From: Desulfosudaceae bacterium
GTDB taxonomy: Bacteria; Desulfobacterota; Desulfobacteria; Desulfobacterales; Desulfosudaceae
Reading direction: 5' to 3'
Length of the DNA: 64,000 bases
Assembly (NCBI GenBank): GCA_963674745.2
Contig: CAXXDV010000003.1
Location: 1,824,001 to 1,888,000, forward strand
Shown here: one piece after another, positions 2,212-28,231 of the stretch
Numbering within the stretch: the first letter of the stretch is position 1
Layout of the letters: every line of letters begins with the position of its first letter
Position numbers and translations under genes: made by a program
The notes under the pieces: generated by a model
What the model was told of the DNA's origin: nothing
The model's database searches: none
What the model saw: the letters and a program-made list of their open reading frames with translations, nothing else

Positions 2212-2484
2212 TTGTGCGTATAAAACGCTTTTTGGAAAATCGAGCTACTCGATAATTTTTGGCAGGATGAATTTGAAACAAAGGGGAAAAAAGATATATT
2301 TTTCATCTTTGCGAATGAACCACCGGCATCGATCAGATCATGCGTTTCTGATCAGCCAGAAATTGGATTTTTTGAATTCGCCAGTCAATCCGGAAAAGAT
2401 GAAAAACGGTTTCTGTACTTTTTTGCAAAACTTTGTAACGAAAAGCCCTGCAAATTTTTGTGAATCACTATAAAATATATTTTC
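2212..2484. other. Probable gene-less cassette (type 2)
   Basis: Proper cassette ends (GTTGTGCG / CGCACAAC); only a doubtful 68-aa ORF (2267-2473); several inverted repeats. Confidence 0.55.
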
Positions 2485-2619
2485 GCACAACCAAGCAGCC
2501 CAAATGACAGCCAGGGCACTCGGGTTCGAAAATTCGGGGAAAATTGAACATTAACCATCTTTAAGGCAGTCGGAGAAAGCCCTGGCTACTTTGGCTGCAG
2601 ACGTTAAGTGCATAAAAGA

Positions 2620-3042: not shown

Positions 3043-3171
3043 CCACGCCACCCACACGGACTCGCAGGGGCGGGCTGCTTTTGTCCTGGCAAAGTTTGGT
3101 GTTAAACTCACTTTAGCGAAATCCGCAACCCCTGCTCGCCGGTGGTGGCGGACGTTATGCAGAATCAATTT

Positions 3172-3579
3172 ATGACTGACACTGCTTCAAAGAGAATTTT
3201 TATTATTATCTCATCAATAATATTGATACCTACTCCTGCCATCATACTCTTCAAAGCCCTGCCGGCGATAAGCTTATCTGAAAATTTTTGGGAATATTTC
3301 GATCATATTTCCGGCTTATGCCTTTTTGGATTTCTGTGGACTGGTTTCTTTATCTATTTGTTCCTTGGCCCTTGGTTACTCAAAAAATATGGGAAAAGAT
3401 CTTTTACAGAAAGCTATGTATTATATTATTGGAAAAATTTTGAATCAGAATTAAAAGACATTGCACCTTCTATTAACGATTCATCTATTAAAATTACTTT
3501 TGCGATATTAAAAATCTGGAAGATAGGGATACTGATAAGTATTATATTGAAATTATTCTCTGTATTTATAAATGCATAA
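3172..3579 (+). CDS. Membrane hypothetical cassette protein (copy 2)
   Basis: Near-identical to 1687-2094 (3 aa changes), same attC. Confidence 0.8.
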   Translation: MTDTASKRIFIIISSIILIPTPAIILFKALPAISLSENFWEYFDHISGLCLFGFLWTGFFIYLFLGPWLLKKYGKRSFTESYVLYYWKNFESELKDIAPSINDSSIKITFAILKIWKIGILISIILKLFSVFINA

Positions 3580-3696
3580 CAAGGCAGCCCAAGAAGACAT
3601 CCAGGGCTAAGGCGTTTTTGAACAACCGGGGATTATTGAACAGTAAACAACTTCAAGGAAGGCGGTGGAAGCCCTGGCTGCTTTTGGCTGCCGCCG

Positions 3697-4102
3697 TTAA
3701 GTGCACTGAATCTGTACGGGAAACAAATAAAAAAAAGAATTTTGGCTGAATTCGACATTCATTGCCAAAATTGTAATTGTCACCAAGTTGATATTTTTGT
3801 CCAGTAAAGATAAATTGTAATTTCGAACTGGCGCGGCCAAATGATAATGCGCCTTTATTTGTCCGGATGAAAAGAGACCTACCCGTTTTCATAAGTTCAT
3901 GATGGACAAGGCGTAAAAAGAAAAATATCATTTTATTTTATTTGCCCATGCTGTCGTTTAAGTCTTTCTGAATAATGCGGGCACTTAACCAAGCAGCCCA
4001 AATGATAGCCAGGGCATTCGGCTTTTGAACATTCGGGGGAAATTGAACATCAACCACCTTAAAGTCAGTCACTGGAAGCCCTGGCTACTTTGGCTGCAGA
4101 CG
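3697..4102. other. Repeated gene-less cassette, copy 1 (incl. attC)
   Basis: GTTAAGTGC...GCACTTAAC; no + strand ORF; five near-identical copies. Confidence 0.85.
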
Positions 4103-4115
4103 TTGGGCATCGAAG

Positions 4116-4583
4116 ATGAAATACTTCTTCATAGCCACTTTTTTAATATTTTTTGCATGTGGATGCGAGAACTCCAATTCTACCTCACAGCCTCCACCAA
4201 AGGGATCTCTGTCTAATCATGAATTTGATGCGCAAGCATCTATATTGCTGGCAGGAAAATGGATTAACCACGATGAATATGAAGCCAGTGAAAAATGGTC
4301 GGAGCTTCACAATACTGTAGACTTTGACAATGATATTGAAGTTAAACGTTGGCTAGACTTACAAAAACAAATCTTAATAAACGCCAGTATGCCTGTAGGA
4401 ATAAAACGTTCTGCCATTCAAGAGTTCTATCTGCACCTCGATCATTCATATGAGTATGAAGCATGGTTTAAGCGGTGCAAGGATACAGGCTTCTTTAAAG
4501 ATTTATTTATCGACCAAAATGTTGATATTATAATTAATGCAATTAATAAAATGAAAAAAGAGCCCAACAATTCAGCCCAGTAG
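4116..4583 (+). CDS. Putative lipoprotein cassette
   Basis: Signal peptide with lipobox-like FACGC; stop lies inside the attC. Confidence 0.8.
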   Translation: MKYFFIATFLIFFACGCENSNSTSQPPPKGSLSNHEFDAQASILLAGKWINHDEYEASEKWSELHNTVDFDNDIEVKRWLDLQKQILINASMPVGIKRSAIQEFYLHLDHSYEYEAWFKRCKDTGFFKDLFIDQNVDIIINAINKMKKEPNNSAQ

Positions 4584-4702
4584 GATCGCCAGGGCACTCG
4601 GGTTTTGAATTTTTGAGAGAACTGGGCATTAACCACCTTTAAGCAAGTCGGAGTAAGCCCTGGCGCCCTCTGGCTGAAGACGTTGGAAGCAAAGGTAAAT
4701 TA

Positions 4703-5014
4703 GTGGGCAAAGCATCTCGATTAAAAAAGATGAGACGAATACAGGGTGCCCAATTTGAGAAAAAGAGAGATATAAAATCAGTTATAAGGCAGGTGACCTG
4801 GTTCAATATTTTGTGTGGGGCGTTTTTTATCCTTGTCGGCAGTATGTTTATTTTTGAAGGTATTGAGGCTTATAAAACTGGGGCTTTAATCCCTGGGACT
4901 TTCAAAGTTCCGCCTATGACAGGTCCGCAATCAATCTTAGCCGGATCTCTTATTGCTATTTTCGGTATATTTTTTGGTGGATATGAAATTTATAAAATTA
5001 AAAAAACGAAATAG
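4703..5014 (+). CDS. Two-TM membrane cassette protein
   Basis: GTG start with AAGGT RBS; two hydrophobic helices. Confidence 0.75.
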   Translation: MGKASRLKKMRRIQGAQFEKKRDIKSVIRQVTWFNILCGAFFILVGSMFIFEGIEAYKTGALIPGTFKVPPMTGPQSILAGSLIAIFGIFFGGYEIYKIKKTK

Positions 5015-5139
5015 AAAACGCTTCCAACAACGCCACTCACACGGACTCGCAGGGGCGGGCTGCCTTTGTCTTGGCATAGTTTGGTGTTGAACTAACTTTA
5101 GCGAAGTCCGCAATCCCTGCTCGCCGGTGGTGGCGGACG

Positions 5140-5545
5140 TTAAGTGCACTAAATCTGTACGTGGAAAAAATAAAAAAAAGAATTTTGGCTGAAATCGCCA
5201 TTCGTTGCCAAAATGGTAATTGTCACCAAGTTGATATTTTTGTCCAGTAAAGATAAATTGTAATTTCGAACTGGCGTGGCCAAATGATAATGCGCCTTTA
5301 TTTGTCCGGATGAAAAGAGACCTACCCGTTTTCATAAGTTCATGATGGACAAGGCGTAAAAAGAAAAATATCATTTTATTTTATTTGCCCATGCTGTCGT
5401 TAAAGTCTTTCTGAATAATGCGGGCACTTAACCAAGCAGCCCAAATGATAGCCAGGGCATTCGGGTTTTGAACATTCGGGGGAAATTGAACGTCAACCAC
5501 CTTAAAGTCAGTCACTGGAAGCCCTGGCTACTTTGGCTGCAAACG
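5140..5545. other. Repeated gene-less cassette, copy 2
   Basis: Near-identical to 3697-4102. Confidence 0.85.
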
Positions 5546-5556
5546 TTATATGCAAT

Positions 5557-5856
5557 ATGAATGATACAAATATCAAAAATTTGAAAGAAGCTGTTGGCTT
5601 GGCATGTGACGCATCGTACACGCCAAATATTTTGAAGGGGAGAGATATTATTCTCTCAATGCCAAAGAAATGGGTTCTTGAAAATATCGAAAATGTTGCG
5701 GCGGAAACGCTGAACTTATCCGACGAATGGCATTTTAGGCGGCTTCTGGAAGTTTACGAAACCCTTGATCAAGATTTGGTTACAAAATTAGTTGAGTTTG
5801 GTCTTAAAAGCACAAACGAAGAAATCGTTGAAGCCGCAACTGATTTTAAGAAATAA
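5557..5856 (+). CDS. Small helical hypothetical cassette protein
   Basis: Fills the cassette. Confidence 0.75.
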   Translation: MNDTNIKNLKEAVGLACDASYTPNILKGRDIILSMPKKWVLENIENVAAETLNLSDEWHFRRLLEVYETLDQDLVTKLVEFGLKSTNEEIVEAATDFKK

Positions 5857-6008
5857 TATTTTTGCATATAACAACGCCACCCACACGGACTCGCAGGGGC
5901 GGCCTGCCTTAGTTTTTGCATAGTGTGGTGTTGAACTAACATTTAAGAAGTCCGCAAACCCTGCTCGCCGGTGGTGGCGGACGTTGTGTGCTTGGGATTT
6001 GAGCCTAT

Positions 6009-6485
6009 ATGCAAATCATTTATGACAAAGTGTCCACCGATTATATATATCCATTGGGCGCTCGATCGGACATAGATGAATTAAAGGGCAAAATTGACGA
6101 TCACCTTTTAAATAAAATTTCAAAAATTCGATTTGGCTGTAATTTAAAAACAACCCAGGAAGCCCGTCTTGTTCAACGAGGCGAAAAATTTGAAATTAGG
6201 ATTAATTTTTGCCTCAAAGAATACAGATCCCCGATAATCACAGACAAAAAGGATTGGCTGCAGACCATTGAAAAGTTTGGCGGAAAACCTGATCCCAAAA
6301 GAAATACTGTACAGTGGAGCTTAGAAAGTGCTAAAAAATATTCATTATTTCTATTGATGCATGAGATAGGCCACATAGTATATTGTTTTAAGCACTTCGG
6401 CGGAAAGCTTACAAATAGAAAAGGTTCAAGCACTGAAGAAAAATGGTGTGAGGACTATGCTTTAAATAAAATCAATAAAATCTAA
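6009..6485 (+). CDS. HExxH-motif (zinc metallopeptidase-like) cassette protein
   Basis: LLMHEIGH followed by a downstream E..C..YA motif. Confidence 0.75.
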   Translation: MQIIYDKVSTDYIYPLGARSDIDELKGKIDDHLLNKISKIRFGCNLKTTQEARLVQRGEKFEIRINFCLKEYRSPIITDKKDWLQTIEKFGGKPDPKRNTVQWSLESAKKYSLFLLMHEIGHIVYCFKHFGGKLTNRKGSSTEEKWCEDYALNKINKI

Positions 6486-6651
6486 AAGCGGCACACAACA
6501 ATCAAGCCCAAGTGGACAGCAAGGGCAGTCGGGTTTTGAAAAACCGGGGGAAATTGAATAACCAAAACATTTAATCAAGTTGGTGGAAGCCCTTGCTGCC
6601 ATTGGCTTGAGACGTTATATGAATCAAGAATTTTAGAACTGGAGATACAAA

Positions 6652-7050
6652 ATGAAAAAGAACCTAAAATGGAAATTATTGGCCACTATCGTAGTATGCT
6701 GTATTGCAGTTTATTTAGTACTCACCAAACCAATTCCCCGTGGTATCGATTTGGCAGGTGGCACATACTTCACCATTGAAGTTATGACTGATGGCCTTTC
6801 AGATGAAAAGAAGAACGAAGCGGTTGATCAAACTCTTGCGGTATATCGTAATAGAGTTGATGAAATTGGCGTCGCTGGGACAATCATACAACGTGCAGGA
6901 GAAAATCAAATTCGCGTACAGATTCCTGGCATCGACACAAAAGAATCAGAGAGGATTAAAGGGATTTTATCAAGACAGGCGCACCTTGAATTTAGGGTCG
7001 TTGTAGATGGCCCTGGGAAACCAATAACAATAAATAATAAAAGCATATAA
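6652..7050 (+). CDS. SecD N-terminal fragment cassette (copy 1)
   Basis: TM1, then GIDLAGG, RNRVDEIGV..IQRAGENQIRVQIPG and LEFR motifs of the SecD N-terminus; GGAG RBS; 132 aa. Confidence 0.8.
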   Translation: MKKNLKWKLLATIVVCCIAVYLVLTKPIPRGIDLAGGTYFTIEVMTDGLSDEKKNEAVDQTLAVYRNRVDEIGVAGTIIQRAGENQIRVQIPGIDTKESERIKGILSRQAHLEFRVVVDGPGKPITINNKSI

Positions 7051-7177
7051 CAACACCATGCACTTGACTCGCAGGGGCGCGCTGCTTTTACAGTACCGTG
7101 GTTCGGTGTTTACGTGGCTTCGCTAAAGTCACGATTCCCTGCTCCCAAGTGACGGTGGACGTTAAGTACATAAAATT

Positions 7178-7588
7178 ATGATCACTCCGAATGATATAAA
7201 AAATAAAAAGATACCAAAGCAAATTGATCTTATATCGAAAGTATTGAGAGTTTCTTCAGAGGATACTGGAAACAAAAAGTATCAATTACTTGCGGTCAAC
7301 AAATCAAAAAGCCATATAGAAAATATCCGGGGAGAATTGCGATACTATAATCAATTCAATTCATTTATTGGTGTAGATTACGGTTTTTGCTACCAGAATG
7401 AAGTATTATCAAAAGAAGAATTTACAATTAATTTCGAAATAGATCCGCCTGAGAAATATTCGAGAGCTGACCTTGTTGTTTCTTTAGAAAACAGCAATTG
7501 GTATAAGAAGCATAAAGTCGAAATTTTAATTGTGGGAATGATCTTATTTATTATTTTTTCTGTGCTTCAAAAAATTTTTTTTAAATAA
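7178..7588 (+). CDS. Hypothetical cassette protein with C-terminal TM
   Basis: Fills the cassette. Confidence 0.75.
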   Translation: MITPNDIKNKKIPKQIDLISKVLRVSSEDTGNKKYQLLAVNKSKSHIENIRGELRYYNQFNSFIGVDYGFCYQNEVLSKEEFTINFEIDPPEKYSRADLVVSLENSNWYKKHKVEILIVGMILFIIFSVLQKIFFK

Positions 7589-7711
7589 TGGTACTTAACA
7601 ATTCAGCCCAGCAGGATCGCCAGGGCAGGCTTTGTTGAATAACCGGGGGAATTGAATATTAACCAACTTTAAGACAGTCGGAGAATCCCTGGCGCCCTCT
7701 GGCTGAAGACG

Positions 7712-8117
7712 TTAAGTGCACTGTATCTGTACGGGAAAAAAATAAAAAAAAGAGTTTTGGCTGAAATCGACATTCGTTGCCAAAATGGTAATTGTCACCA
7801 AGTTGATATTTTTGTCCAGTAAAGATAAATTGTAATTTCGAACTGGCGCGGCCAAGTGATAATGCGCCTTTATTTGTCCGGATGAAAAGAGACCTACCCG
7901 TTTTCATAAGTTCATGATGGACAAAGCGTAAAAAGAAAAATATCATTTTATTTTATTTGCCCATGCTGTCGTTTAAGTCTTTCTGAATAATGCGGGCACT
8001 TAACCAAGCAGCCCAAATGATAGCCAGGGCATTCGGCTTTTGAACATTCGGGGGAAATTGAACATCAACCACCTTAAAGTCAGTCACTGGAAGCCCTGGC
8101 TACTTTGGCTGCAGACG
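7712..8117. other. Repeated gene-less cassette, copy 3
   Basis: Near-identical to 3697-4102. Confidence 0.85.
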
Positions 8118-8140
8118 TTATATTTTTTAGAAGGAGCATC

Positions 8141-8581
8141 ATGAAGAGGGCAAAAATTTTTGTATTATCAATTTTGTTGTTGATCGCTGCTTCAGTAGTT
8201 TCCTTCTATTTCGGCGGAAAAGTTGGATTTCATCAAGGCTATTTTTATTGTAATGCCCAGCAAAAAATAATTAATGCAGCCGTGACAACTGAGGTTTTAC
8301 TCAGAATACGAGATAACAAAATTGACCAAACGAGAAGTTTGCTTGAAACAGTTTTGGATAGTCAAATTATAGGTCATAAATTCGAAATTGAAAAATTTCA
8401 ATCATTTCATGGGTTGTATTTCTATGACCGGGAAGAGCTACTGGATGAAGCATCTATCGGCATAATGAAAAGGGCATGTCAGTATCGGGAAAAATACCCA
8501 TACAAAAATGATAAAAGGACTGGCGCGGTTAATCAAAGGATAAAATCGGTACTTAATCATTATCTATCAAATGAAAATTAA
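8141..8581 (+). CDS. Exported/membrane-anchored hypothetical cassette protein
   Basis: AAGGAG RBS; N-terminal hydrophobic segment. Confidence 0.8.
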   Translation: MKRAKIFVLSILLLIAASVVSFYFGGKVGFHQGYFYCNAQQKIINAAVTTEVLLRIRDNKIDQTRSLLETVLDSQIIGHKFEIEKFQSFHGLYFYDREELLDEASIGIMKRACQYREKYPYKNDKRTGAVNQRIKSVLNHYLSNEN

Positions 8582-8716
8582 AATATAACCAAGCAGCCCA
8601 AAGGACCACCAGGGCACTCGGGTTTTGAACATTCAGGAAAAATTGAACATAAACCATTTTTAAGACAGTCGGAGGAAGCCCTGGTGCCCTCTGGCTGCAG
8701 ACGTTATAACGATTGA

Positions 8717-9172
8717 ATGAAATACCTAAAACTACTTTTCAAGATTTTGATCGGTCTCGTCGGACTTATTATAATCTTAAATATTTTTATTCTCATCGCT
8801 GAAAGTTACGAAACCGTTACAAAGCAAAATGGAAATGAAATCACTGAAATCGAAATCAAGAAGGTGTTTGGAAAAAAAATTTCAGAATGTACTATCAATG
8901 CTGACGGATTCTATCATGGCCCATCAAAAGGATGGTACCTCTTTAAAGGTGCCTTAAAAAGTGCGGGGAACTTTAAGAATGGGTATTGGAATGATCTTTG
9001 GACCTTCTACGATAGAAACAGTCAATTGATGATGCATATAGAATACAACATGGGAGTTCCTATCAAGATATTTTTACCTGATGGAAAAGATTTCAGAGAA
9101 CTCCCCAAAGAAGAATGGCCAAAACATTTAAAGTCCAAACAGAGTAGTCCACAAAGGGCGCATGAAAAATAA
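8717..9172 (+). CDS. MORN-variant repeat (YwqK-like) cassette protein
   Basis: HGPSKGWY..G.LKSAGNFKNGYWNDLWTFY repeat pattern; N-terminal TM. Confidence 0.65.
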   Translation: MKYLKLLFKILIGLVGLIIILNIFILIAESYETVTKQNGNEITEIEIKKVFGKKISECTINADGFYHGPSKGWYLFKGALKSAGNFKNGYWNDLWTFYDRNSQLMMHIEYNMGVPIKIFLPDGKDFRELPKEEWPKHLKSKQSSPQRAHEK

Positions 9173-9319
9173 ATGGCGCGTTATAACAATCCAGCCCAGT
9201 AGGATCGCCAGGGCACTCGGGTTTTGGACATTCGGGAGAAACTTGAACAGTAAACACCTTTAAGTCAGTCAGAGAAAGCCCTGGCGCCCTCTGGCTGGAG
9301 ACGTTCGACGTAACAGAAA

Positions 9320-9847
9320 ATGGATTATAACGGGCAAAAGATAAGCTGGTCAATTTCATCAGAAGATGAAAGCCTTACTTTGAAACGTAATAGCGGATAT
9401 CTACTGGACGTCTTATATATTGCCGTCCCAAGTCTCTTGCTCTTATGTGGATTGTTCTTTCTGACACTGGTAATTTCTGCATTTGATATTGTGGCTCTTT
9501 TTTGTATTTGTTTCTGTTTATTCAATCTTTTTGTTATTTACGCCATTTTAAAAACTGGAAGAATAGGCCTGAAAAGAATTGTTGTTTCGAAGCGACCGAA
9601 ATCGACAATTTTCTATTACCTGTTCGGCTTGAAACGAAAATTAAATGAAAATCCTTCACATATCCTGTTCAAATTTTATGACGCAAAATCTGAAATGATG
9701 ACAAATATAGTTTTTAAGGGGCACAAACATATAATCATCACCCTTTCCCGAGTCTTTGGAAGTGAAAAGGATTCATTGGAAAGAAGTATACAAATTGCGC
9801 AACCATTTTTAAATATGCTGGGGATATCGTATAAAACTGAAATATAA
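9320..9847 (+). CDS. Membrane hypothetical cassette protein
   Basis: Two TM segments; fills the cassette. Confidence 0.75.
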   Translation: MDYNGQKISWSISSEDESLTLKRNSGYLLDVLYIAVPSLLLLCGLFFLTLVISAFDIVALFCICFCLFNLFVIYAILKTGRIGLKRIVVSKRPKSTIFYYLFGLKRKLNENPSHILFKFYDAKSEMMTNIVFKGHKHIIITLSRVFGSEKDSLERSIQIAQPFLNMLGISYKTEI

Positions 9848-10005
9848 ACAATTAAATCGTCGAACAATTCAGCGCAAAAGGATCGCCAGGGCATTCAGTT
9901 TTTGAACATTCGGGGGAATTGAACTTTAACCATCTATAAGTCAGTTGGTGAAAGCCCTGGCGCCCTTTGGCTGCCGCCGTTATATTTTATGAAGGATATT
10001 TCTGA

Positions 10006-10518
10006 ATGGATAAGAAAAAATGTTTGATATGCTGTAGTGAAATAGATGTTCAGGCTAAAAAATGTCCTTTTTGTAAACACTGGCAAAATAAAATTAGCCT
10101 GGTGATTTGGCATCCATTTTTTACAGTAGCGATATTGCTTGTTCTTTACCTTCTATTCCAACAATTCTTCATTGATACACTTGGCCCTGGTGAGGATTTT
10201 GCTCCGGTAAGAAGTGAAATTGTTTTAAAGGATTGTACTATGGAGTTCGGTGAATCCAAATGCGGGCAAACAGTGGTCATTTTAGGAATGATTGAAAATA
10301 ATAGCGATCTAAATTGGGAAAAACCAAATTTTGAAATGATTTTCTTTGACAAGGATAAAAATATAATTGACACCGAACAGGAGGAAAATTACAGTTTTGT
10401 CCTACCATCAAAAGAAAAAGTCCCTTTTAAGGTATCGATTAGAAGAGAATTTCCGCAGGAACTTTATGACTCGTTTGAGATACGAATTGTAACGGCCAAA
10501 GAAGAAGGCCACTATTAA
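10006..10518 (+). CDS. Zn-ribbon + TM + FxLYD-like domain cassette protein
   Basis: CLIC..CPFC, one TM, then G.IENNS...FFDKDKNII. Confidence 0.7.
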   Translation: MDKKKCLICCSEIDVQAKKCPFCKHWQNKISLVIWHPFFTVAILLVLYLLFQQFFIDTLGPGEDFAPVRSEIVLKDCTMEFGESKCGQTVVILGMIENNSDLNWEKPNFEMIFFDKDKNIIDTEQEENYSFVLPSKEKVPFKVSIRREFPQELYDSFEIRIVTAKEEGHY

Positions 10519-10651
10519 AATATAACAACACGTTGGTAAGGGACCGCAAGGGGCGTCCGGTTTTGGCTCTTGCCACATAATTCAAAAACGAGTTTTCTGC
10601 GGGTGGCTCCCTCCCCTTGCGGCCCCACACCGTGGACGTTAGGTTCCAGAG

Positions 10652-10972
10652 ATGGAAGAATTGGAAAAATATTTTGCGAAAGTCATCTTTGGCTGGACGT
10701 GGCGTAGGTTTTTAACACTATGCGTTGCCATTAGTACAGTAGCTATGTTGGTATTCGCTTTGCTTTCCCTTTTACCATCCGAATCTCATAAAACGACAAG
10801 CTGGAAAGAGATTATTTTGCTTTCGCTACTCTTTGGGCCATTGGTGACAACCGCCGCTTTTCTATATTTTCGCTTCGTCAAAGGCCCAATGACATTGTCG
10901 AGGCTGCGATCTAAAGGCAGGACTGACGCTATCGAATTTTGTCATGAAATAATAAATAAAAACGGAACCTAA
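10652..10972 (+). CDS. Two-TM cassette protein
   Basis: Fills the cassette. Confidence 0.75.
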   Translation: MEELEKYFAKVIFGWTWRRFLTLCVAISTVAMLVFALLSLLPSESHKTTSWKEIILLSLLFGPLVTTAAFLYFRFVKGPMTLSRLRSKGRTDAIEFCHEIINKNGT

Positions 10973-11101
10973 CAACGCCACCCACACAGACTCGCAGGGG
11001 CGGGCTGTTTTGGCATTGGCGTAATTTGGAGTTAAACTTACTTTAGCGAAGTCTGCAAACCCTGCTCGCCGGTGGTGGCGGACGTTATGTGCAGGATATA
11101 A

Positions 11102-11620
11102 GTGATTACACACCTTGTAGAAAAATATGACAATGTAGACTTGGCAAATATTTTCCGGTTGAATGTCAAATTTTCGGGTTCTGTCTTTTTGCTCGCAATA
11201 GGAATAATGTTTGCCTTCTATTACGAAGATGGTTCATTAGACGAAGTACAAGCTTTATTTTGGTATATCCCCTTTTGTTTACTGATCTTTCTCAGCGGTT
11301 TGTTTGTGTTAATCAAGCAACGTTTTGTGAAGCAAATTTTTCGAATACATGCTTTATTTGCCTTGTTGTTGGCTGTTTTTGCTTTAATAGGATTAGTACC
11401 CTTTGTATTACAAGGTATTCCGGAAGGTAGTTTCCGCTGGAGCTTTGGCCTACCAACAGCCATAATAGTTTATGGAATATATCTGTTCAGAATTGGCTGG
11501 CTTGCAGACTGGGTCGATATTTATTGGTTTGTCAAATTCTCGCATGTGATAGCCGGTGCTTTTGTCGCATTATTAGAGCTCATTGTTTTAATATATATAA
11601 TTAAATTATTGGGCACATAA
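11102..11620 (+). CDS. Multi-TM cassette protein
   Basis: About 5 hydrophobic segments; GTG start. Confidence 0.75.
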   Translation: MITHLVEKYDNVDLANIFRLNVKFSGSVFLLAIGIMFAFYYEDGSLDEVQALFWYIPFCLLIFLSGLFVLIKQRFVKQIFRIHALFALLLAVFALIGLVPFVLQGIPEGSFRWSFGLPTAIIVYGIYLFRIGWLADWVDIYWFVKFSHVIAGAFVALLELIVLIYIIKLLGT

Positions 11621-11733
11621 CAATGCCTCTCACCCGGACTCGCAGGGGGCGGTCGGCCTTGGGTCTGGCGTTATTTGGAGTTAAACTCACTTTAGCGAAG
11701 TCCGCAAACCCTGCTTGCCGGTGGTGGCGGACG

Positions 11734-12138
11734 TTAAGTGCACTGAATCTGTACGGGAAACAAATAAAAAAAAGAATTTTGGCTGAAATCGACATTCGTT
11801 GCCAAAATGGTAATTGTCACCAAGTTGATATTTTTGTCCAGTAAAGATAAATTGTAATCTCGAACTGGCGCGGCCGAATGATAATGCGCCTTATTTGTCC
11901 GGATGAAAAGAGACCTACCCGTTTTCATAAGTTCATGATGGACAAGGCGTAAAAAGAAAAATATCATTTTATTTTATTTGCCCATGCTGTCGATAAAGTC
12001 TTTCTGAATAATGCGGGCACTTAACCAAGCAGCCCAAATGATAGCCAGGGCATTCGGCTTTTGAACATTCGGGGGAAATTGAACATCAACCACCTTAAAG
12101 TCAGTCACTGGAAGCCCTGGCTACTTTGGCTGCAGACG
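11734..12138. other. Repeated gene-less cassette, copy 4
   Basis: Near-identical to 3697-4102 with a 1-nt deletion. Confidence 0.85.
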
Positions 12139-12161
12139 TTAGTGTTTGAAAGAAAATCCTT

Positions 12162-12482
12162 ATGGGGCCTATAAATATCGAAGCGCGTGAAAAAGCGGCT
12201 ATCAAAGCAATCAAATCAGCATATGGTACTCCTGAGCAAGAAGATGGAGTTACCCTGTTTGCAGAACATCATATTGAAGAACTTGAACCTGAATATTGGG
12301 TGAAACACCTCGGGATTAAGAACCCAGACCCAAAAAAAGTATTGGATTTACTTGTGCTTCGGGAACACTGGGATGAAGATCGTGTTTTTGACTTTACTCT
12401 TCCAGAAAACGTTACGGATTATGTTATTAGCGTTGAGTTCGATGACAATGGTGAAATTGAAGATATAACGATGGAAAGTTAA
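12162..12482 (+). CDS. DUF2004-like cassette protein
   Basis: C-terminal DFTL..TDYVISVEFDDNGEIEDITMES motif, recognised from memory. Confidence 0.65.
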   Translation: MGPINIEAREKAAIKAIKSAYGTPEQEDGVTLFAEHHIEELEPEYWVKHLGIKNPDPKKVLDLLVLREHWDEDRVFDFTLPENVTDYVISVEFDDNGEIEDITMES

Positions 12483-12634
12483 TTAAAAAAACACTAACAA
12501 CGCCACCCACACGGACTCGCAGGGGCGGGCCGCCTTGGATTTGGCGTAATTTTGAGTTAAACTCACTTTAAGGAAGTCCGCAAACCCTGCTCGCCGGTGG
12601 TGGCGGACGTTATGCCGAAAAACCAGGAAAGATT

Positions 12635-13036
12635 ATGGCTGATTTAGACAAGCTGATAGAAGATATAAATAATTACCAGAGACGATCAGATATTGATGAG
12701 TTTAAATCAGAATTATTACAAAATTATTTATATTTCTTTCTCATAGATGATGGTTCATTTAAGCAAGTCACAGAAATAGTTTGGACAAGCAAAGATAGGC
12801 CTGTAAATGTCCCCCTAATAAATGAAGAAAATGAGACCTACGGCGTCCTATATACCTCCAAAAAGAACGCAATGAACAGTATGGAAGATAGATTTGTGAT
12901 TTCATATATGAAAGGCCCGAAAGCTTTAAAATTTATGCGAGGAATTAAAAATTTGACCCAGGTTATTGTTCAAGGAAAAAATACGTTTGTACATTTAGAT
13001 CGCACTACGATTGATGAAATATTAAGCAGGGCATAA
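12635..13036 (+). CDS. Hypothetical (possibly SseB-like) cassette protein
   Basis: AGGA RBS; P......LYTS motif is only weakly SseB-like. Confidence 0.6.
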   Translation: MADLDKLIEDINNYQRRSDIDEFKSELLQNYLYFFLIDDGSFKQVTEIVWTSKDRPVNVPLINEENETYGVLYTSKKNAMNSMEDRFVISYMKGPKALKFMRGIKNLTQVIVQGKNTFVHLDRTTIDEILSRA

Positions 13037-13163
13037 CCACGCCACCCACACTGACTCGCAGGGGCGGTCGGCCTTGGGTTTTGGCGTAATTTGGAGTTAA
13101 ACTCACTTTAGCGAAGTCCGCAAACCCTGCTCGCCGGTGGTGGCGGACGTTATATGATAAAAA

Positions 13164-13757
13164 ATGACTAACCTGACGCTAATGAGAAATAGGCTTTTTT
13201 TATTTGTTAAAATTTCAACAGGTACTATCTTGCTTGGTATATACTTAAATTTTATTATTATTTATGCTTGGGCGCATTTATTGAATTTGGAAATTGAAAT
13301 ATCTAAACAAATGTACTTCAATGTTGGACAACCAATTTTTTTATTAGGTTCTCCGTTGGCAATCTTTACTGTAATCATTCAACTGACAATCATAATCGGT
13401 TTAGCCTTTATCCTGAGTAAAAATCTAAAGTGGTACAGAAAAATTTATGTGTGTGTGGCAGTGGTATCCGTTGCAATATTTATAGCATTGCCAAATATTA
13501 TCACTTATAGAGGATCTTCTCATTGTCACAGACTTGAAGTTGTGTCTAACAATATGCTGGATAAAGCTACCTCATATTTCAGAATTCACCCAGACACAGA
13601 AGTTTTGCCCAAGGTTACAGATATTGTGGAAAGAGTTCCTCCTGGTTTTTCGGTCGAAATTTTCAGAAATGAAAATGAAAGAATAGAAATGATTGTAAAA
13701 ATAAAAAGAAATCAATGTCCAAAATTTGATTCGGTTACAAAATATGTCCAGATTTAA
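13164..13757 (+). CDS. Membrane cassette protein
   Basis: Three TM segments plus a C-terminal soluble domain. Confidence 0.75.
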   Translation: MTNLTLMRNRLFLFVKISTGTILLGIYLNFIIIYAWAHLLNLEIEISKQMYFNVGQPIFLLGSPLAIFTVIIQLTIIIGLAFILSKNLKWYRKIYVCVAVVSVAIFIALPNIITYRGSSHCHRLEVVSNNMLDKATSYFRIHPDTEVLPKVTDIVERVPPGFSVEIFRNENERIEMIVKIKRNQCPKFDSVTKYVQI

Positions 13758-13921
13758 ATAAAATCATATAACAATGCCACTCACCCGGACTCGCAGGGGC
13801 AGTCGGCCTTGAGTTTATGCATAGGTTAGTGTTAAACGCACTTTAGCGAAGTCTGCAAACCCTGCTCGCCGGTGGTGGCAGACGTTATATGAATCAAGAA
13901 TTTTAGAACTGGAGATACAAA

Positions 13922-14320
13922 ATGAAAAAGAACCTAAAATGGAAATTATTGGCCACTATCGTAGTATGCTGTATTGCAGTTTATTTTGTACTCACCAAAC
14001 CAATTCCCCGTGGTATCGATTTGGCAGGTGGCACATACTTCACCATTGAAGTTATGACTGATGGCCTTTCAGATGAAAAGAAGAACGAAGCGGTTGATCA
14101 AACTCTTGCGGTATATCGTAATAGAGTTGATGAAATTGGCGTCGCTGGGACAATCATACAACGTGCAGGAGAAAATCAAATTCGCGTACAGATTCCTGGC
14201 ATCGACACAAAAGAATCAGAGAGGATTAAAGGGATTTTATCAAGACAGGCGCACCTTGAATTTAGGGTCGTTGTAGATGGCCCTGGGAAACCAATAACAA
14301 TAAATAATAAAAGCATATAA
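13922..14320 (+). CDS. SecD N-terminal fragment cassette (copy 2)
   Basis: One aa difference from 6652-7050. Confidence 0.8.
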   Translation: MKKNLKWKLLATIVVCCIAVYFVLTKPIPRGIDLAGGTYFTIEVMTDGLSDEKKNEAVDQTLAVYRNRVDEIGVAGTIIQRAGENQIRVQIPGIDTKESERIKGILSRQAHLEFRVVVDGPGKPITINNKSI

Positions 14321-14477
14321 CAACACCATGCACTTGACTCGCAGGGGCGGGCTGCTTTTAAAGTATCGTGGTTCGGTGTTAACGTGGCTTTGCAAAAGTC
14401 ACCTTTCCCTGCTCCCAAGTGACGGTGGACGTTAACTGCATAATAGGTTCTAAATAAATTCAAGGGAAACGTTTCAG

Positions 14478-14798
14478 ATGCAAGATGTTTTCTTTTTATA
14501 TATTGTTTGTGCGATTACCCTAATACCAGTATGGATTACTTTGATACTGAGAAAATTCTTTCCAAATAAATTATGGCTTGGACTAATAGTCAGTTTCGTC
14601 TTTAATGGATTTGGACATTTTTATCGAAAAGGCGGATTCGTTTATTGCTTGGTGATTCTTTTAATCCAAGCCTTAATAATGATACAAACCGAAAACGAAG
14701 AGATTTTTTTTATTATACCAATGCTGCTCTCACCTTTAATTATGTTTGCCCGTTTTCGACTACCCGCAATCAATAATATTGAAGGGAACAGCAGTTAA
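14478..14798 (+). CDS. Small multi-TM cassette protein
   Basis: Hydrophobic; stop in the attC core. Confidence 0.75.
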   Translation: MQDVFFLYIVCAITLIPVWITLILRKFFPNKLWLGLIVSFVFNGFGHFYRKGGFVYCLVILLIQALIMIQTENEEIFFIIPMLLSPLIMFARFRLPAINNIEGNSS

Positions 14799-14924
14799 CA
14801 ACGCCACTCACGCCGACTCGCAGGGGCGGGCTGCCTTTGCCTTGGTGTAGGTTGGTGTTAAACTCACTTTAGCGAAGTCCGTAAACCCTGCTCGCCGGTG
14901 GTGGCGGACGTTAACTGTATATAA

Positions 14925-15122
14925 ATGACCAGATCTACGTTTGATAAGCTCAAGATTATTGGGCACATAATTGGAATGATAATCGTTCTTACTGGAGCAT
15001 ATCTTTCAATATTTACGAATTGTGGGGGGCAATACTTTATAGTTGGATTTTTGATTTATTGGGTCATCAACTATGGGTTCGTTAGAGGAATAATTGAAAT
15101 GAAATATCTCAAAGACGAATGA
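14925..15122 (+). CDS. Small two-TM cassette protein
   Basis: 65 aa, starts right after the core site. Confidence 0.65.
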   Translation: MTRSTFDKLKIIGHIIGMIIVLTGAYLSIFTNCGGQYFIVGFLIYWVINYGFVRGIIEMKYLKDE

Positions 15123-15338
15123 AAAAATACCAACCATTGGAATATTTAACCCAAATTTGAACAGACCGGATTAGAAAAAAACATATAAAAAAAAGCAGTT
15201 AACAACACGTTGGTAGGGACCGCAAGGGGCGTCCGGTTTTGGCTCTTACCACATTTATTCATTAACGAGTTTTTGCGGGTGGCCCGTTCCCCTTGCGGCC
15301 CCACACCGTGGACGTTATGCTCCATAAAAGGATGAGTC

Positions 15339-15743
15339 TTGGCCGATAAAATTTTAATGACCTTGATTTATATTCTCCCTATAGGAGGTATTTCCTACTT
15401 CCTTTTAAAAATTTCAGTTCGCCAATTCAAAGTATGGAAAAAAAGTTCGGCCAGCATTGAGGGTGTAAAGTCAGCGCGCATCAAATCGATCTTGTCAATT
15501 ATCGCATGTTTAGCGGGAATGACATTGGGCTCATTATGGCTTTGCATGATATGGTTTCCAAGCATCCAATTCCCTTTACTTGTGAAGATTCTTTTCTTTA
15601 TTCTTTTAATACCATTCATGTGCTTTTTGGCATTACTTGGGGGGTTGGGAAAAGCCGTTGGGGCTGGTGCTGATTCTGCCACGGGTGTATTGAATGATTT
15701 AAATAGTATGGTTTCTGAAAAGCCCGAGAATAAGGGCAATTAA
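15339..15743 (+). CDS. Membrane cassette protein
   Basis: TTG start with AAGGA RBS; three TM segments. Confidence 0.7.
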   Translation: MADKILMTLIYILPIGGISYFLLKISVRQFKVWKKSSASIEGVKSARIKSILSIIACLAGMTLGSLWLCMIWFPSIQFPLLVKILFFILLIPFMCFLALLGGLGKAVGAGADSATGVLNDLNSMVSEKPENKGN

Positions 15744-15877
15744 GGGAGCATAACCACGCCACTCACACGGACTCGCAAGGGCGGGCGGCTTTTGTTGTGG
15801 CGTAATTTGTAGTTGAACTCACTTTAGCGAAGTCCGCAAACCCTGCTCGCCGGTGGTGGCGGACGTTAGGAGCATTA

Positions 15878-16297
15878 ATGACTCTTTCAAATCGATGGGT
15901 CTTCAATCTCATAATAATTTGGTCAATTCCTTGGTGTTACGCAGCTGCGGTAGCAGGTTCAAGAGCGATATTTACCTTTCTTGATATGCAACCTGAACAA
16001 TATGGATCAATGGTTGGATTGATAATGATATTAACCCCCATAATAGTCCTGACAAATTTTAGATTTAACCCTTTTGGTAAATACGCAACAATTGCGCTAC
16101 TATTATTATATTCAATATTTTCTATTACTCATGTTGTGAACATGGTGAATACAGACTACTATGAAAAAACTGGGGAGTTTCCACTTACTCCTTTTATCTC
16201 TGCAATAAATCTCTTTGTTATTTATTATTTAATCGGTAAACCATACAAACAAAGATTTGAAGAGTTTAGACAAAAACAAAATGGGCAATTTGCATAA
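15878..16297 (+). CDS. Four-TM cassette protein
   Basis: AGGAG RBS overlapping the GTTAGGA core. Confidence 0.8.
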   Translation: MTLSNRWVFNLIIIWSIPWCYAAAVAGSRAIFTFLDMQPEQYGSMVGLIMILTPIIVLTNFRFNPFGKYATIALLLLYSIFSITHVVNMVNTDYYEKTGEFPLTPFISAINLFVIYYLIGKPYKQRFEEFRQKQNGQFA

Positions 16298-16448
16298 AAC
16301 GGCTCCTAACCATTCAGCCCAGTAGGATCGCCAGGGCACTCGGTTTTTGAACATCCGTGCTGAATTGAACATTAACAGACTTTAAGAAAGTCGGAGGAAG
16401 CCCTGGCGCCCTCTGGCTGAAGACGTTATGTGCAAAATGTGAATAAGC

Positions 16449-16931
16449 ATGAACCAAGATAAAAACGATTACAATTATATTAACGCTGCAGATGATGCAT
16501 ATAGGCATGCGATCTTTGAGGCCTTGATGCATTACCAAATGGTGGAAGATCTTTTACGTAATTGTATTTTATTGAGTTACGAAATTTTAAACGCATCATC
16601 TCATGAGAAAGTGACATATAAACCGTCCCAAAAACACCTTGACGATATACGAAAAAGAAAAGGCCTTGGAGGGCTAGTCGACGTTTTTGAGACATTAACT
16701 CATCATAAAGATTTGTGTGCCAGAATTAAACAGGAAGCTGCAAACAGAAATATTGTAGCACACCGAGCTGCTGCTGATTACTTACAATTTCCTTTAAGTA
16801 AAGACGGCGCTGAAGAGTGTTTTTTAAGAGCTTCAGATATTGATGAATTTGCAACTAAAGCAAGCTGGCTATACGAAGATTTATATAGAGTCCATGAAGA
16901 AATAGAAAAAATTCATGGTGAAATTGTCTGA
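16449..16931 (+). CDS. Hypothetical cassette protein (RNxxAH, HEPN-like motif)
   Basis: RNIVAH fits the Rx4H HEPN pattern; helical protein. Confidence 0.6.
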   Translation: MNQDKNDYNYINAADDAYRHAIFEALMHYQMVEDLLRNCILLSYEILNASSHEKVTYKPSQKHLDDIRKRKGLGGLVDVFETLTHHKDLCARIKQEAANRNIVAHRAAADYLQFPLSKDGAEECFLRASDIDEFATKASWLYEDLYRVHEEIEKIHGEIV

Positions 16932-17056
16932 AGCACATAACCATTCAGCGCAAGAGGATCGCCAGGGCATTCGGGTTTTGAACATTCAGAGGAAGTTGAA
17001 CATAAACCATCTTTAAGACAGTCAGAGTAAGCCCTGGCGCCCTTTGGCTGAAGACG

Positions 17057-17461
17057 TTAAGTGCACTGATTCTGTACGGGAAAAAATAAAAAAAAGAATT
17101 TTGGCTGAAATCGACATTCGTTGCCAAAATGGTAATTGTCACCAAGTTGAATTTTTCGGCCAGTAAAGACAAATTGTAATTTCGAACTGGCGCGGCCAAA
17201 TGATAATGCGCCTTTATTTGTCCGGATGAAAAGAGACCTACCCGTTTTCATAAGTTCATGATGGACAAGGCGTAAAAAGAAAAATATCATTTTATTTTAT
17301 TTGCCCATGCTGTCGTTAAAGTCTTTCTGTATAATGCGGGCACTTAACCAAGCAGCCCAAATGATAGCCAGGGCATTCGGCTTTTGAACATTCGGGGGCA
17401 ATTGAACATCAACCACCTTAAAGTCAGTCACTGGAAGCCCTGGCTACTTTGGCTGCAGACG
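17057..17461. other. Repeated gene-less cassette, copy 5 (most diverged)
   Basis: Same element with several substitutions; TATAAT near its 3' end. Confidence 0.85.
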
Positions 17462-17483
17462 TTATGCGTTACATATAATTGAC

Positions 17484-19562: not shown

Positions 19563-20280
19563 CATACAAGATGACCAGGCTGATGATGTCGCCGATGCCC
19601 GGAACGGATTTCAACAGCATATAGCTGTGGTAATCGTGGCCCTTGGCATGTTTGAGGATATGATATTCAACGCTGGAAAGATGCTGGTCATAAAAGCCGA
19701 TCAGCTGGACATCCAGATCAATGCTTTTCTGGGCGCTGGGATCGTCAAATCGATCTTCGACCAGCTTGCGATTGGCTTTGTACTTTAAGTTTTTTCCGAT
19801 CTCCGGCAGGTTGTACTGGGTGTTGGTGTTTTGGATATGCGCGATGAGTTCGCCCCGTTTGCGCGTCAGATGCATTCTTCTTCGCAGCAGGTCCCGGGTG
19901 GCCCGCATCGCGGCGGGGTATACAAAGGCCACCGGGAAATTGCCGCCCCTGATCAGGCTGGCAATTTTGTATGAGTCGATCCTGTCGTTTTTGGCCTTGC
20001 CGCCATGAATGGCTTTCATGTAAAGGGCATGTCCGAGGATAAACGGAATATTGCGGTTTTCGCAGAAATCTGCTACCCAATACCAGGAGAACATACATTC
20101 CACGGCGATGACAAGATCGTCCAGGAAGGGGGAGATCGCACGTTCGAGTGCATCCGGTTTTGATTTGATTTTTTTGTGATAAACAACCTGACCGTCACTG
20201 TCCAGAATACAGACATACAGTGATCTGGCGTGAAGGTCGATACCGCAGTAATACTTGTGCTGTTTGGTATAGAATTTCAT
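19563..20280 (-). pseudogene. Truncated IS110 transposase
   Basis: Identical to the full copy up to LVILY, then reads out into the attC. Confidence 0.9.
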
Positions 20281-21970: not shown

Positions 21971-23014
21971 TTACGTCGGAAGAAACCGTTCCATATTAAA
22001 CGGTTCCTTATGTTTGAGCATATAATACACTGTCCGGCCTAACTTGTGGGCCAGGATGGTAAGTGATTTTCCTTTACTGTGCCGTTTGGTCAATCTATTG
22101 ACATAGGCCTTGATCGGTTCGTTGCCTCTTATGGATAGGACGGCTGCTTCAGAAAAGGCCCATTTTAAATGGGCGTTGCCGATTTTGGCGCCGGAGGTGC
22201 CGTAGATTTTTCCGGCTGACTCTGCCCTGCATTTGACCAGCCGGGCATACGAGGCAAAGTCCTGGACGGTCGGGAACCGGCTGATGTCGTAGATTTCATA
22301 CAAGATGACCAGGCTGATGATGTCGCCGATGCCCGGAACGGATTTCAACAGCATATAGCTGTGGTAATCGTGGCCCTTGGCATGTTTGAGGATATGATAT
22401 TCAACGCTGGAAAGATGCTGGTCATAAAAGCCGATCAGCTGGACATCCAGATCAATGCTTTTCTGGGCGCTGGGATCGTCAAATCGATCTTCGACCAGCT
22501 TGCGATTGGCTTTGTACTTTAAGTTTTTTCCGATCTCCGGCAGGTTGTACTGGGTGTTGGTGTTTTGGATATGCGCGATGAGTTCGCCCCGTTTGCGCGT
22601 CAGATGCATTCTTCTTCGCAGCAGGTCCCGGGTGGCCCGCATCGCGGCGGGGTATACAAAGGCCACCGGGAAATTGCCGCCCCTGATCAGGCTGGCAATT
22701 TTGTATGAGTCGATCCTGTCGTTTTTGGCCTTGCCGCCATGAATGGCTTTCATGTAAAGGGCATGTCCGAGGATAAACGGAATATTGCGGTTTTCGCAGA
22801 AATCTGCTACCCAATACCAGGAGAACATACATTCCACGGCGATGACAAGATCGTCCAGGAAGGGGGAGATCGCACGTTCGAGTGCATCCGGTTTTGATTT
22901 GATTTTTTTGTGATAAACAACCTGACCGTCACTGTCCAGAATACAGACATACAGTGATCTGGCGTGAAGGTCGATACCGCAGTAATACTTGTGCTGTTTG
23001 GTATAGAATTTCAT
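21971..23014 (-). CDS. IS110-family DEDD transposase/recombinase
   Basis: CGIDLH, AVE, KNDRIDS, SVPGIG, ESAGK, GNAHLKWAF motifs; GGAGG RBS before ATG 23014. Confidence 0.95.
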   Translation of the reverse strand: MKFYTKQHKYYCGIDLHARSLYVCILDSDGQVVYHKKIKSKPDALERAISPFLDDLVIAVECMFSWYWVADFCENRNIPFILGHALYMKAIHGGKAKNDRIDSYKIASLIRGGNFPVAFVYPAAMRATRDLLRRRMHLTRKRGELIAHIQNTNTQYNLPEIGKNLKYKANRKLVEDRFDDPSAQKSIDLDVQLIGFYDQHLSSVEYHILKHAKGHDYHSYMLLKSVPGIGDIISLVILYEIYDISRFPTVQDFASYARLVKCRAESAGKIYGTSGAKIGNAHLKWAFSEAAVLSIRGNEPIKAYVNRLTKRHSKGKSLTILAHKLGRTVYYMLKHKEPFNMERFLPT

Positions 23015-23660: not shown

Positions 23661-24281
23661 ATGAATAGGATGTCATATTCGCTGGCCTTGATGATTGTGG
23701 TTGCGTCGTTTGTTTGTGGATGCGCAACTCAATCGTCCAGGCAGAGCCTTATCGAAGACATCGATTCTGTAATCCCTCCGGGGTGGTACACGTTCGACCG
23801 CGGAGATGGAATTTGGGTTATCAGAAAACAACCAGTTCGGATGACCAGCTTTCTGTCCTCCTTGGGTGGGAGTGCAGAACCACACTCCAAAACATATCAG
23901 ATTGTGCTTTCCAATGCTGATTTCATTCCCCCATCGGAATTCCATGTTGTCAGAAAGAAGCAGGAGGAGGTCGACGACTTGCGCAAACAAGTGATGGTCA
24001 TTCCGCATGAGAAGGACAAGACGAGGCATCCACGAGATTGGAAATTCCAGCCTCGCACAAAGGCGGAAGAAAACATGATTCTTGAGTACCGGAATAAGTC
24101 TCAACGGATTAAGCCTCTTCCGAACCTCTACTGGAGGCATCACGCATTCCGTATGGATCAAGGGTTCCTAATGGATTCCTTCGAAGTTGAATCTGATGAA
24201 AAGGAATGCATAGCAGTACTCAAGTCCGTTTTGAGTCTATTCAATGAATATGGAGACCAATCCAATTGGGATAGGGAGTAG
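23661..24281 (+). CDS. Putative lipoprotein cassette
   Basis: Lipobox VCGC; present stop is inside the intron, while the original stop lies in the attC once the intron is removed. Confidence 0.75.
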   Translation: MNRMSYSLALMIVVASFVCGCATQSSRQSLIEDIDSVIPPGWYTFDRGDGIWVIRKQPVRMTSFLSSLGGSAEPHSKTYQIVLSNADFIPPSEFHVVRKKQEEVDDLRKQVMVIPHEKDKTRHPRDWKFQPRTKAEENMILEYRNKSQRIKPLPNLYWRHHAFRMDQGFLMDSFEVESDEKECIAVLKSVLSLFNEYGDQSNWDRE

Positions 24282-24974
24282 CCTCACGGCTACCCCCTCC
24301 CACACCACCTGGCATACGGATCACGTACCAAGGCGGTTCGGCTGGTACTGATGAAACCGGCTGTGAGTTATCCCACCAGCTCTACCGGGTTTTCAGAGAA
24401 AGCTCGCTACGTGAATTTCGGCAGCTGCCGCATTATCCCCGTAAGAGATACTCCCTTACTTGCCACCACCATTTACCCGTGCCATTCGGTCCGGGCACCG
24501 TTCCGGCCTTCACCGGGGTGAGTCCTCCGGGTATACTTCTCCCGCTTAAGGGAGGCCCGGCTCGTTTCCGCCGGCTACTATGCCTTCTGCTGACTTCTCC
24601 CCTGCGGTCAGGGCCGGTTACCCGACCCTCAGCCGTTGTACGGCACAGGAGAGATCTCCCGGGGTAAGCACGTGTCTTTCGGTACGTAAATGCCAAGTTT
24701 ACGGACACGCCTTAAGATGGATAGAGGACTTTGCCTTGTGGTGCAGGCTCGTCCCGGCGTGCGCGCCTTATACTCGATTCCTGTGCGTCATCCCGTACCT
24801 TCGCGGTACCCTGCCGCAGCAGGGCGGCTTCCTCCCGAAGCACCGTCACCGGTACCCCGTTGCACTACCGCTACACCCTTCGCCTCCATCAAGCTGGGTC
24901 TAAGACTTGCCAAAATTATCAAATATATGATAGCCTTGGCTCACTTTTAAGAACATGTGCCGTGCCCGGCACAC
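24265..24974 (-). mobile_element. ORF-less group IIC-attC intron, copy 1 (710 nt)
   Basis: 5' GTGTG, 3' CCCAAT; DV GAACCGCC..GTACG; inserted at A|AC of the attC core, bottom strand. Confidence 0.9.
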
Positions 24975-25071
24975 ACAAAGCCATCGACGGCGACTGAGTA
25001 AACCGCGCCTTCGGCACGGTTCCCTCAGCGCGTCATGGCCGACGTTATCATAATAAAAGGTATAATGTATA

Positions 25072-25347: not shown

Positions 25348-25473
25348 TATATGATACCAACGCCACTCACACAGACTCGCAGGGGCGGGCCGCCTTGGCT
25401 TTTGCATAGTTTGGTGTTGAACTCACTTTAGCGAAGTCCGCAAACCCTGTTCGCCGGTGGTGGCGGACGTTAT

Positions 25474-27730: not shown

Positions 27731-27739
27731 GTTTCGTTG

Positions 27740-28225: not shown

Positions 28226-28231
28226 AACATA

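Follow-up and report, generated by a model that had tools for sequence, protein, structure and literature searches.

What is a cassette that carries no evident gene doing at five places along one integron array? The question is raised by a 64,000-nt stretch of a Desulfosudaceae bacterium genome (assembly GCA_963674745.2, contig CAXXDV010000003.1, positions 1,824,001 to 1,888,000), which we call the window and whose own positions are used below, except where a genome coordinate is prefixed C1 or C3. In it, a first-pass annotation made from the letters alone had pointed to five copies of a 405-406 bp unit at 3697, 5140, 7712, 11734 and 17057, and had proposed for it a mobile structured RNA, an internal promoter, or both. 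The five copies are borne out by a repeat finder and by alignment. The reading that we favor, tentatively, is that the unit is an integron cassette without a functional gene, a member of a young paralogous family spread by integrase, and that its likeliest activity, if it has any, would be transcriptional by way of a predicted promoter.

The repeat finder returns the direct copies as 3668-4104, 5111-5547, 7683-8119, 11705-12140 and 17027-17463, and when they are aligned from their cassette borders they measure 405-406 bp each with a mean column identity of 98% (n = 5). All five lie on the plus strand and are type A in the subtype scheme given below. Copy 1 (3697..4102) begins G|TTAAGT, has its body at 3697-3980 followed by its own attC, and ends ...GACG|TT; copy 2 is at 5140..5545 and copy 3 at 7712..8117. 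Copy 4 (11734..12138) lacks 1 bp at cassette position 158, a deletion shifting an antisense open reading frame (ORF), and copy 5 (17057..17461) has a 1-bp deletion in an A-run near position 25-28. The attC of copy 1 (3981..4108, plus strand) has an R'' of ACTTAAC and an R' of G|TTGGGC, and its bottom strand, folded as DNA with an energy of -21.4 kcal/mol (z = -2.4), makes a hairpin that is long, imperfect and bulged. Each copy is closed in this way by its own attC of about 120 nt, with R'' ACTTAAC and R' G|TT..., the unit that follows opens with G|TT..., and G|TTAAGT opens every one of the 27 copies that the genome contains. With G|TTRRRY borders, an attC that folds, and arrays tied to an integrase, the unit is an integron gene cassette. 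By attC detection, the window copies are units 8, 11, 16, 22 and 31. The earlier numbering of 8, 11, 16, 23 and 33 agrees for the first three, and its last two are compatible with ours because attC detection can miss a few sites.

Amplification by five is the right count for the window and falls short for the genome, where BLAST and an nhmmer profile agree on exactly 27 full-length copies in 5.55 Mb, with the next profile hits at E values of at least 0.42. The only indels among the 27 are of 1-3 bp. They are distributed over six attC clusters, or arrays, in a genome where attC detection gives 13 clusters with at least 234 attC-like sites between them. Three integron integrase genes (intI) exceed the cut-off of the NCBIfam profile TIGR02249, at C3:27977-28915, C3:2348261-2349205 and C1:2117407-2118342, and each adjoins an array holding a copy of the family; the same profile search of the genome finds no intI near the window's own array. 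At least five attC clusters are without a nearby integrase. The biggest cluster contains 87 attC-like sites (C1:1.48-1.53 Mb). By copy number this is the largest cassette family present, accounting for 24 of 220 delimited cassette bodies (the other three copies have no detected upstream attC and fall outside the 220), with the runner-up at 8 and all others at 4 or fewer. That runner-up has 97-100% identity among its 8 copies and a 270-bp body, with an open sense-strand frame across most of the body and a 68-aa ATG ORF in one copy; its members are at window 2217-2486, at C3:37264 and C3:2344278, and at C1:1515150, 1518498, 1518890, 1522844 and 2115051.

The 27 copies fall into subtype A with 17 members, including one that is 12% diverged and one A/B chimera, and subtype B with 10. 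The two subtypes differ by 18-33% at cassette positions 31-150, which in copy 1 is the segment 3727..3846, and by 3-7% at positions 1-30 and 151-390. Diversity within type A is 2-8% in the body and 2-7% in the attC. The A/B mosaic may be explained without invoking function, either by one recombination with a more diverged relative or by conversion tracts starting at the shared attC borders.

That the unit is mobile, as had been proposed, is supported. There are four groups of copies that are identical over the 400 nt compared and have different flanks, with one such pair spanning C1 and C3, and window copy 2 is identical over the same length to the copy at C1:1489111. Identical copies in different contexts mean that integrase-mediated spread has been recent. 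The intI at C3:27977 has a family copy beside it as cassette number 1, and another copy is cassette number 1 in the array at C1:906 kb, beside a 103-aa ORF. That ORF, at about C1:906.6 kb, resembles the N-terminus of an integron integrase as judged by eye only; it is truncated next to an oxidoreductase-like gene and adjoins an attI-like junction, and the array is probably a decayed integron. Five tandem pairs occur among the family copies. The copies at C1:903342, C1:1523235, C1:2106394 and C3:29521 retain the body and have a hybrid attC, its left half unchanged and its right half (the L'/R' side) different, a configuration expected from recombination of attC with attC.

The nearest or joint-nearest relative of every window copy is found in another array, and hence the five window copies sample a pool that is genome-wide and do not form a local series. 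The most distal copy had been described as the most diverged, which holds marginally (9 differences from the type-A majority, compared with 5-8 for the others) and carries little meaning because each window copy has its nearest relative elsewhere. Nor do we find anything beyond copy number in favor of the suggestion that the cassette was repeatedly selected to restart transcription along the array.

Does the cassette encode a protein? As the first-pass annotation had it, the plus strand is empty, with no ORF of 25 aa or more inside the copy 1 body, and the minus-strand ORF ends differently from copy to copy. In copy 1 that ORF is 92 aa (3653..3931, minus strand) and exits the cassette into the upstream attC; across copies 1-5 it measures 92, 145, 95, 77 and 77 aa, and the 1-bp deletion in copy 4 does displace it. 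An antisense ORF of at least 73 aa is present in 23 of the 27 copies, and the other four comprise two without the ATG, one frameshifted just after the ATG, and one with a stop at codon 37. In most type-A copies, the ORF terminates in whichever attC lies upstream, leaving the tail dependent on context, and in subtype B the C-terminal half is in another frame than in A and ends within the cassette at 73 aa. Copy 4 enters the subtype-B frame through a separate 1-bp deletion.

Counts of synonymous to non-synonymous differences are alike across the six frames, with 6:12 and 10:32 in the ORF frame compared with 14:27 in a stop-containing frame, and comparing type A with the 12%-diverged copy in the open frame gives a ratio of non-synonymous to synonymous variation (pN/pS) of 0.87. 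By codon position 1-3 of the subtype-B frame, the A versus B differences number 8, 3 and 8, with 5 synonymous and 9 non-synonymous codons; we set this pattern aside as a coding sign, it being weak and equalled by a plus-strand frame with stops. Codon usage gives the ORF frame 0.03 per codon, the best of the six, where ORFs of the array score 0.15 ± 0.08 and off-frame translations -0.21 ± 0.14. Pfam has no family for the antisense ORF at its cut-off, and a match of PF24061 to the copy 4 version (E = 0.022, 14.3 bits against a cut-off of 27) was discarded as below threshold. Searches of 5.8 and 1.84 billion proteins returned only close copies, three predicted proteins at 79-95% identity that are read-through translations of such cassettes, and a back-translated ORF alignment run against metagenome contigs gave 336 pattern hits and zero relatives. 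The ESM Atlas gives a low language-model recognition score of 1089, with a top hit of 0.86 lying under the 0.9 lead level, and AlphaFold2 run on the 92-aa ORF as a single sequence gave an uninformative mean predicted local distance difference test (pLDDT) score of 46. The frame change between subtypes, the loss in 4 of 27 copies, and the absence of coding constraint agree with the earlier judgment that the frame is probably not coding. The antisense ORF is not under protein-level selection, within the limited power that young copies allow.

The candidate promoter lies in the attC-proximal half of the body that is conserved between subtypes. It is a sense sigma-70-like site, TGGACA-17-TATCAT, matching 10 of 12 consensus positions at 3903..3931 on the plus strand, with a predicted start near 3938 from which a transcript would go through the attC into the next cassette. 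The site is found in all five window copies, and of the 27 genomic copies 26 preserve the -35 and all have a 17-nt spacer. The 600 bp around copy 1 contain 6 sigma-70-like sites, against 0.9 ± 0.8 in shuffled sequence, and the sites scoring at least 10/12 in 20 kb number 15, being the five instances of this sense site, one copy 4 antisense site, and nine others. On the minus strand, a predicted 9/12 site, ACGACA-16-TAAAAT at 3930..3957, overlaps the sense -10 as well as the antisense ORF's ATG. The first-pass annotation had nominated a different -10, an AATAAT just before the attC, and was correct that it reads TATAAT in copy 5. That hexamer is retained in 24 of 27 copies, and we rejected it as a -10 on finding no -35 partner in the scan and a better sense site 45 bp upstream. 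A terminator role was also considered and dropped, with no terminator-like site in 3600-4200. An internal sense promoter, predicted from the consensus match, is plausible, and there is precedent in Vibrio, where most of 29 gene-less cassettes showed sense promoter activity (Blanco et al. 2024, PMC11014356, cited here and below for part of its text).

The unit is probably not a conserved structured RNA. The inverted repeats that had been listed are present in copy 1, and the structured RNA drawn from them is not supported: there is no Rfam match, the whole-body fold is near that of shuffles, and there is no covariation. Rfam 15 gave no match at the gathering threshold nor at E ≤ 1. The 289-nt body folds at z = -1.32 on the plus strand (22 of 200 shuffles as good) and z = -0.88 on the minus strand (32 of 200). 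The helices were examined in an alignment of 22 distinct copies, 6 of its rows being subtype B, in which the five proposed helices, with 35 pairs, are paired in 91.9% of cells, and shuffles equal them on every measure in 377 of 500 trials. No compensatory change occurs in those 35 pairs, with a two-sided change in 1 of 769 cells, and RNAalifold puts the covariation term at -0.16 kcal/mol and shows none of its 59 pairs compensated. Each of the 6 subtype-B rows has lost pairs in helices 1-3, and helices 4-5 barely vary. The A/G change that was said to keep pairing in the first hairpin turns out to alter one side of its pair, U-A becoming U-G, and to lie outside the 7-bp stem described. The long-range repeat TGATATTTTT/AAAAATATCA was rejected as a helix; its pairs are lost in 3-12 of the 22 rows without compensation, and the match has probably arisen by chance, the DNA being AT-rich.

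The sole element that folds beyond chance is a central imperfect hairpin (3848..3915, with arms CGCCTT/AAGGCG and TTGTCC/GGACAA and an inner stem), near-invariant in A and B. Folded as the 73 nt at 3846-3918, it scores z = -2.8 on the plus strand (3 of 200 shuffles as good) and z = -2.1 on the minus strand, and 2 of its 4 variant cells are wobble-compatible. In the most diverged copy, the plus strand favors another fold over this hairpin (z = -0.5).

Outside this genome, the family is hard to find. The body is not matched in 60 relatives. A search of 400 genomes of the order, with a single copy as the query, gives 47 besides this one that match at E ≤ 0.01, and all of the matches below 1e-5 span query positions 285-406, the attC, alone, with no match to the body. 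Exact-pattern scans of genome contigs and metagenome contigs did not find the conserved core. Similarity to the body does exist in two marine-sediment metagenome runs, where contigs span 3845-4016 with 5-15 differences; sediment metagenome contigs carry variants at 85-97% identity, and both subtypes are present in a second sample that bears the same organism label. The family looks species-restricted and young, with similarity otherwise limited to a few sediment metagenome contigs. The cassette upstream of copy 1 (3401-3698, with an ORF at 3142-3579) has a counterpart with 5 differences in 298 nt in a contig from a differently labelled organism, and this match suggests sharing of cassettes between organisms. 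The contigs of that run cover the upstream cassette and attC sites and not the body, and contigs of this kind cannot prove absence.

Two further features of the window stand apart from the family. Other cassettes of the array are duplicated as well, as pairs of direct repeats that are 286-300 nt long and 96-100% identical, located at 1634-1933 and 3119-3418, at 6584-6883 and 13854-14153, at 1-286 and 6332-6617, and at 19563-19862 and 22297-22596. Rfam also places four copies of group II intron domains D1-D4 (RF02001 and RF01998) at 24261-32947 on the minus strand and one intron at 25533-27730 on the plus strand within the cassette array (RF02012 for the 5' part and RF00029 for domain V-VI), and these group II matches coincide with repeat families D3-D6. 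The introns opposed to the cassette direction resemble the attC-targeting group IIC introns, for which we take them to be candidates.

Under the reading that we favor, excision and re-insertion by the integrase would have carried 27 copies in two main subtypes into six arrays, and a sigma-70-type promoter (TGGACA-17-TATCAT) on the sense strand of the conserved attC-proximal half would start transcripts that continue across the attC of the cassette and into its downstream neighbor. A weaker overlapping antisense promoter site may exist too. The analysis itself establishes the borders of the cassette, its attC, the number of copies, their recent movement, and the absence of covariation and of coding constraint; promoter activity, and any benefit to the cassettes downstream, we infer. 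Several results weigh against this. The nine other sites scoring at least 10/12 occupy the remaining 18 kb or so, for a base rate of about 1 per 2 kb, so that a 0.29-kb body would contain such a site by chance with a probability of roughly 0.1. Of the 27 copies, 19 keep the -10 hexamer and 8 have it changed, about what neutral drift leaves, and so purifying selection on the -10 is not visible. In the part of Blanco et al. (PMC11014356) cited here, in-silico prediction failed to identify the real promoters of gene-less cassettes, and the sense site found by such means here is therefore a lead and no finding. As to the gene-less half of the reading, the antisense frame is the one with the best codon-usage score of the six, and the copies are so young, at no more than 12% divergence, that the constraint tests are low-powered. 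Formal definitions of gene-less also exclude the unit, with its antisense ORF of at least 73 aa in 23 of 27 copies, the cut-offs being no ORF over 150 bp in the quoted portion of Boucher et al. (2006, PMC1382264) and ORFs under 70 aa in that of Blanco et al. (PMC11014356). On protein match and on synonymous-type variation, it does have the profile of a gene-less cassette, with no Pfam family at cut-off and a pN/pS of 0.87.

Purely selfish spread is nearly as likely as a sense promoter. Stated in full, as an alternative that we regard as possible if somewhat doubtful, the cassette would be a selfish or neutral hitch-hiker with no host function, its attC often recombined by the three resident integrases in the manner of a non-autonomous mobile element, and the promoter-like sites and the hairpin would be incidental to AT-rich DNA. 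The top copy number among cassette families here, the identical copies across arrays, the first position at two attI-type junctions, and the five tandem pairs all fit such an element, as do type-A diversity that is alike in body and attC, frames, -10 hexamer and helices that all lack detectable constraint, and a body absent from the 400 other genomes of the order in which the attC part alone was matched. "Selfish elements" is moreover one of two readings in the quoted portion of Boucher et al. (PMC1382264). It is less expected on such a view that all 27 copies stay full length with 1-3-bp indels only, that the subtypes differ by 3-7% over the attC-proximal 135 bp and by 18-33% in the middle, and that promoter-like sites are enriched over shuffles, although youth and gene conversion could also explain all three. 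Those 135 bp beside the attC, comprising the hairpin and an AT-rich tract, might also be a cis-acting aid to mobility, for instance by favoring extrusion of the attC strand or loading of the integrase, and the middle of the body would then be free to drift, which would produce the mosaic of 18-33% and 3-7%. We consider this quite unlikely; were it true, the family would be a specialized integron parasite exploiting three co-resident integrases, neither promoter nor relic.

Two cargo explanations remain to be set beside the promoter. The antisense strand might encode a genuine small protein, about 73-95 aa long, of addiction type or some other orphan, with its promoter in or near the attC and either the A or the B form intact. 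Orphans are common among cassette proteins, and the frame stays open in 23 of 27 copies, opens from a second ATG even in the 12%-diverged copy, tops the codon-usage score, and was predicted by public gene callers in the three other assemblies that hold the 79-95% identical proteins. A and B nonetheless differ in their C-terminal frame, the type-A tail is set by the upstream attC, four copies have lost the ATG or the frame or have gained a stop, and at a pN/pS of 0.87 the share of synonymous changes is no greater than in stop-containing frames. There is also no Shine-Dalgarno-like purine run before the ATG, which the antisense promoter-like -10 overlaps, and the Pfam match below cut-off, the pLDDT of 46 from a single sequence, and the low Atlas recognition score lend the protein no help, making it on balance rather unlikely. 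The first-pass idea of a structured non-coding RNA carried as cassette cargo, acting in cis or in trans, we hold to be very unlikely, the least probable of all. It can point to the 73-nt hairpin, stabler than shuffles on both strands, near-invariant in A and B, and with half of its variant cells wobble-compatible. It has to contend with an Rfam result that is nil at E ≤ 1, whole-body z scores of -1.3 and -0.9, covariation reached by 377 of 500 shuffles, none of the 59 RNAalifold pairs compensated, helices 1-3 broken in every subtype-B row, and a diverged copy whose plus strand scores z = -0.5. 

Among known systems, large chromosomal integrons contain antisense toxin-antitoxin cassettes, with a reverse-oriented ORF and multiple copies in the arrays. 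The present unit is like them in both respects and unlike them in that its one short ORF matches no family, has a frame that is not conserved between subtypes, and gives no sign of purifying selection. ORF-less promoter cassettes of the oral metagenome (PMC6557892) are reportedly a comparable type. The closest likeness is to the paralogous non-coding cassettes of Vibrio as presented in the quoted portion of Boucher et al. (PMC1382264). Non-coding cassettes tend there to be paralogous, two V. vulnificus strains having 45 and 34 of them, and to have close homologs or none; homogenization by gene conversion is raised as possible, and selfish spread is set against promoter or RNA alternatives. Our family has many paralogs per genome (27 compared with 45 and 34), no protein match beyond the family, a narrow range, and conservation over its whole length; it is unlike the Vibrio families in that the host is no Vibrio, the copies occupy six arrays of which three have their own intI, and the unit carries an antisense ORF over the 150-bp limit. 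On all points other than that formal limit, it fits the description in the quoted portion (PMC1382264). The gene-less promoter cassettes of Vibrionaceae superintegrons (PMC11014356) are likewise short and have no credible sense gene, and the candidate sense sigma-70-like site upstream of the attC in our family, with a possible antisense site, would be a further likeness. Promoter activity was measured there with reporters and rapid amplification of 5' cDNA ends (5'-RACE), whereas here there is a consensus match, and that work, in the part cited, did not lean on copy number.

Vibrio already offers examples of amplified gene-less cassettes, and this sequence adds another member to that class. 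Such cassettes are recurrent and poorly explained in large chromosomal integrons, and the present family is a clear case outside Vibrio, in which identical copies in separate arrays show that cassettes are still moving between arrays. Current views are not overturned whichever way it is read. A genuine sense promoter would mean that cassettes of this kind account for the expression of arrays that have no integron promoter, and without one the family would be a clean example of a cassette spreading for its own sake.

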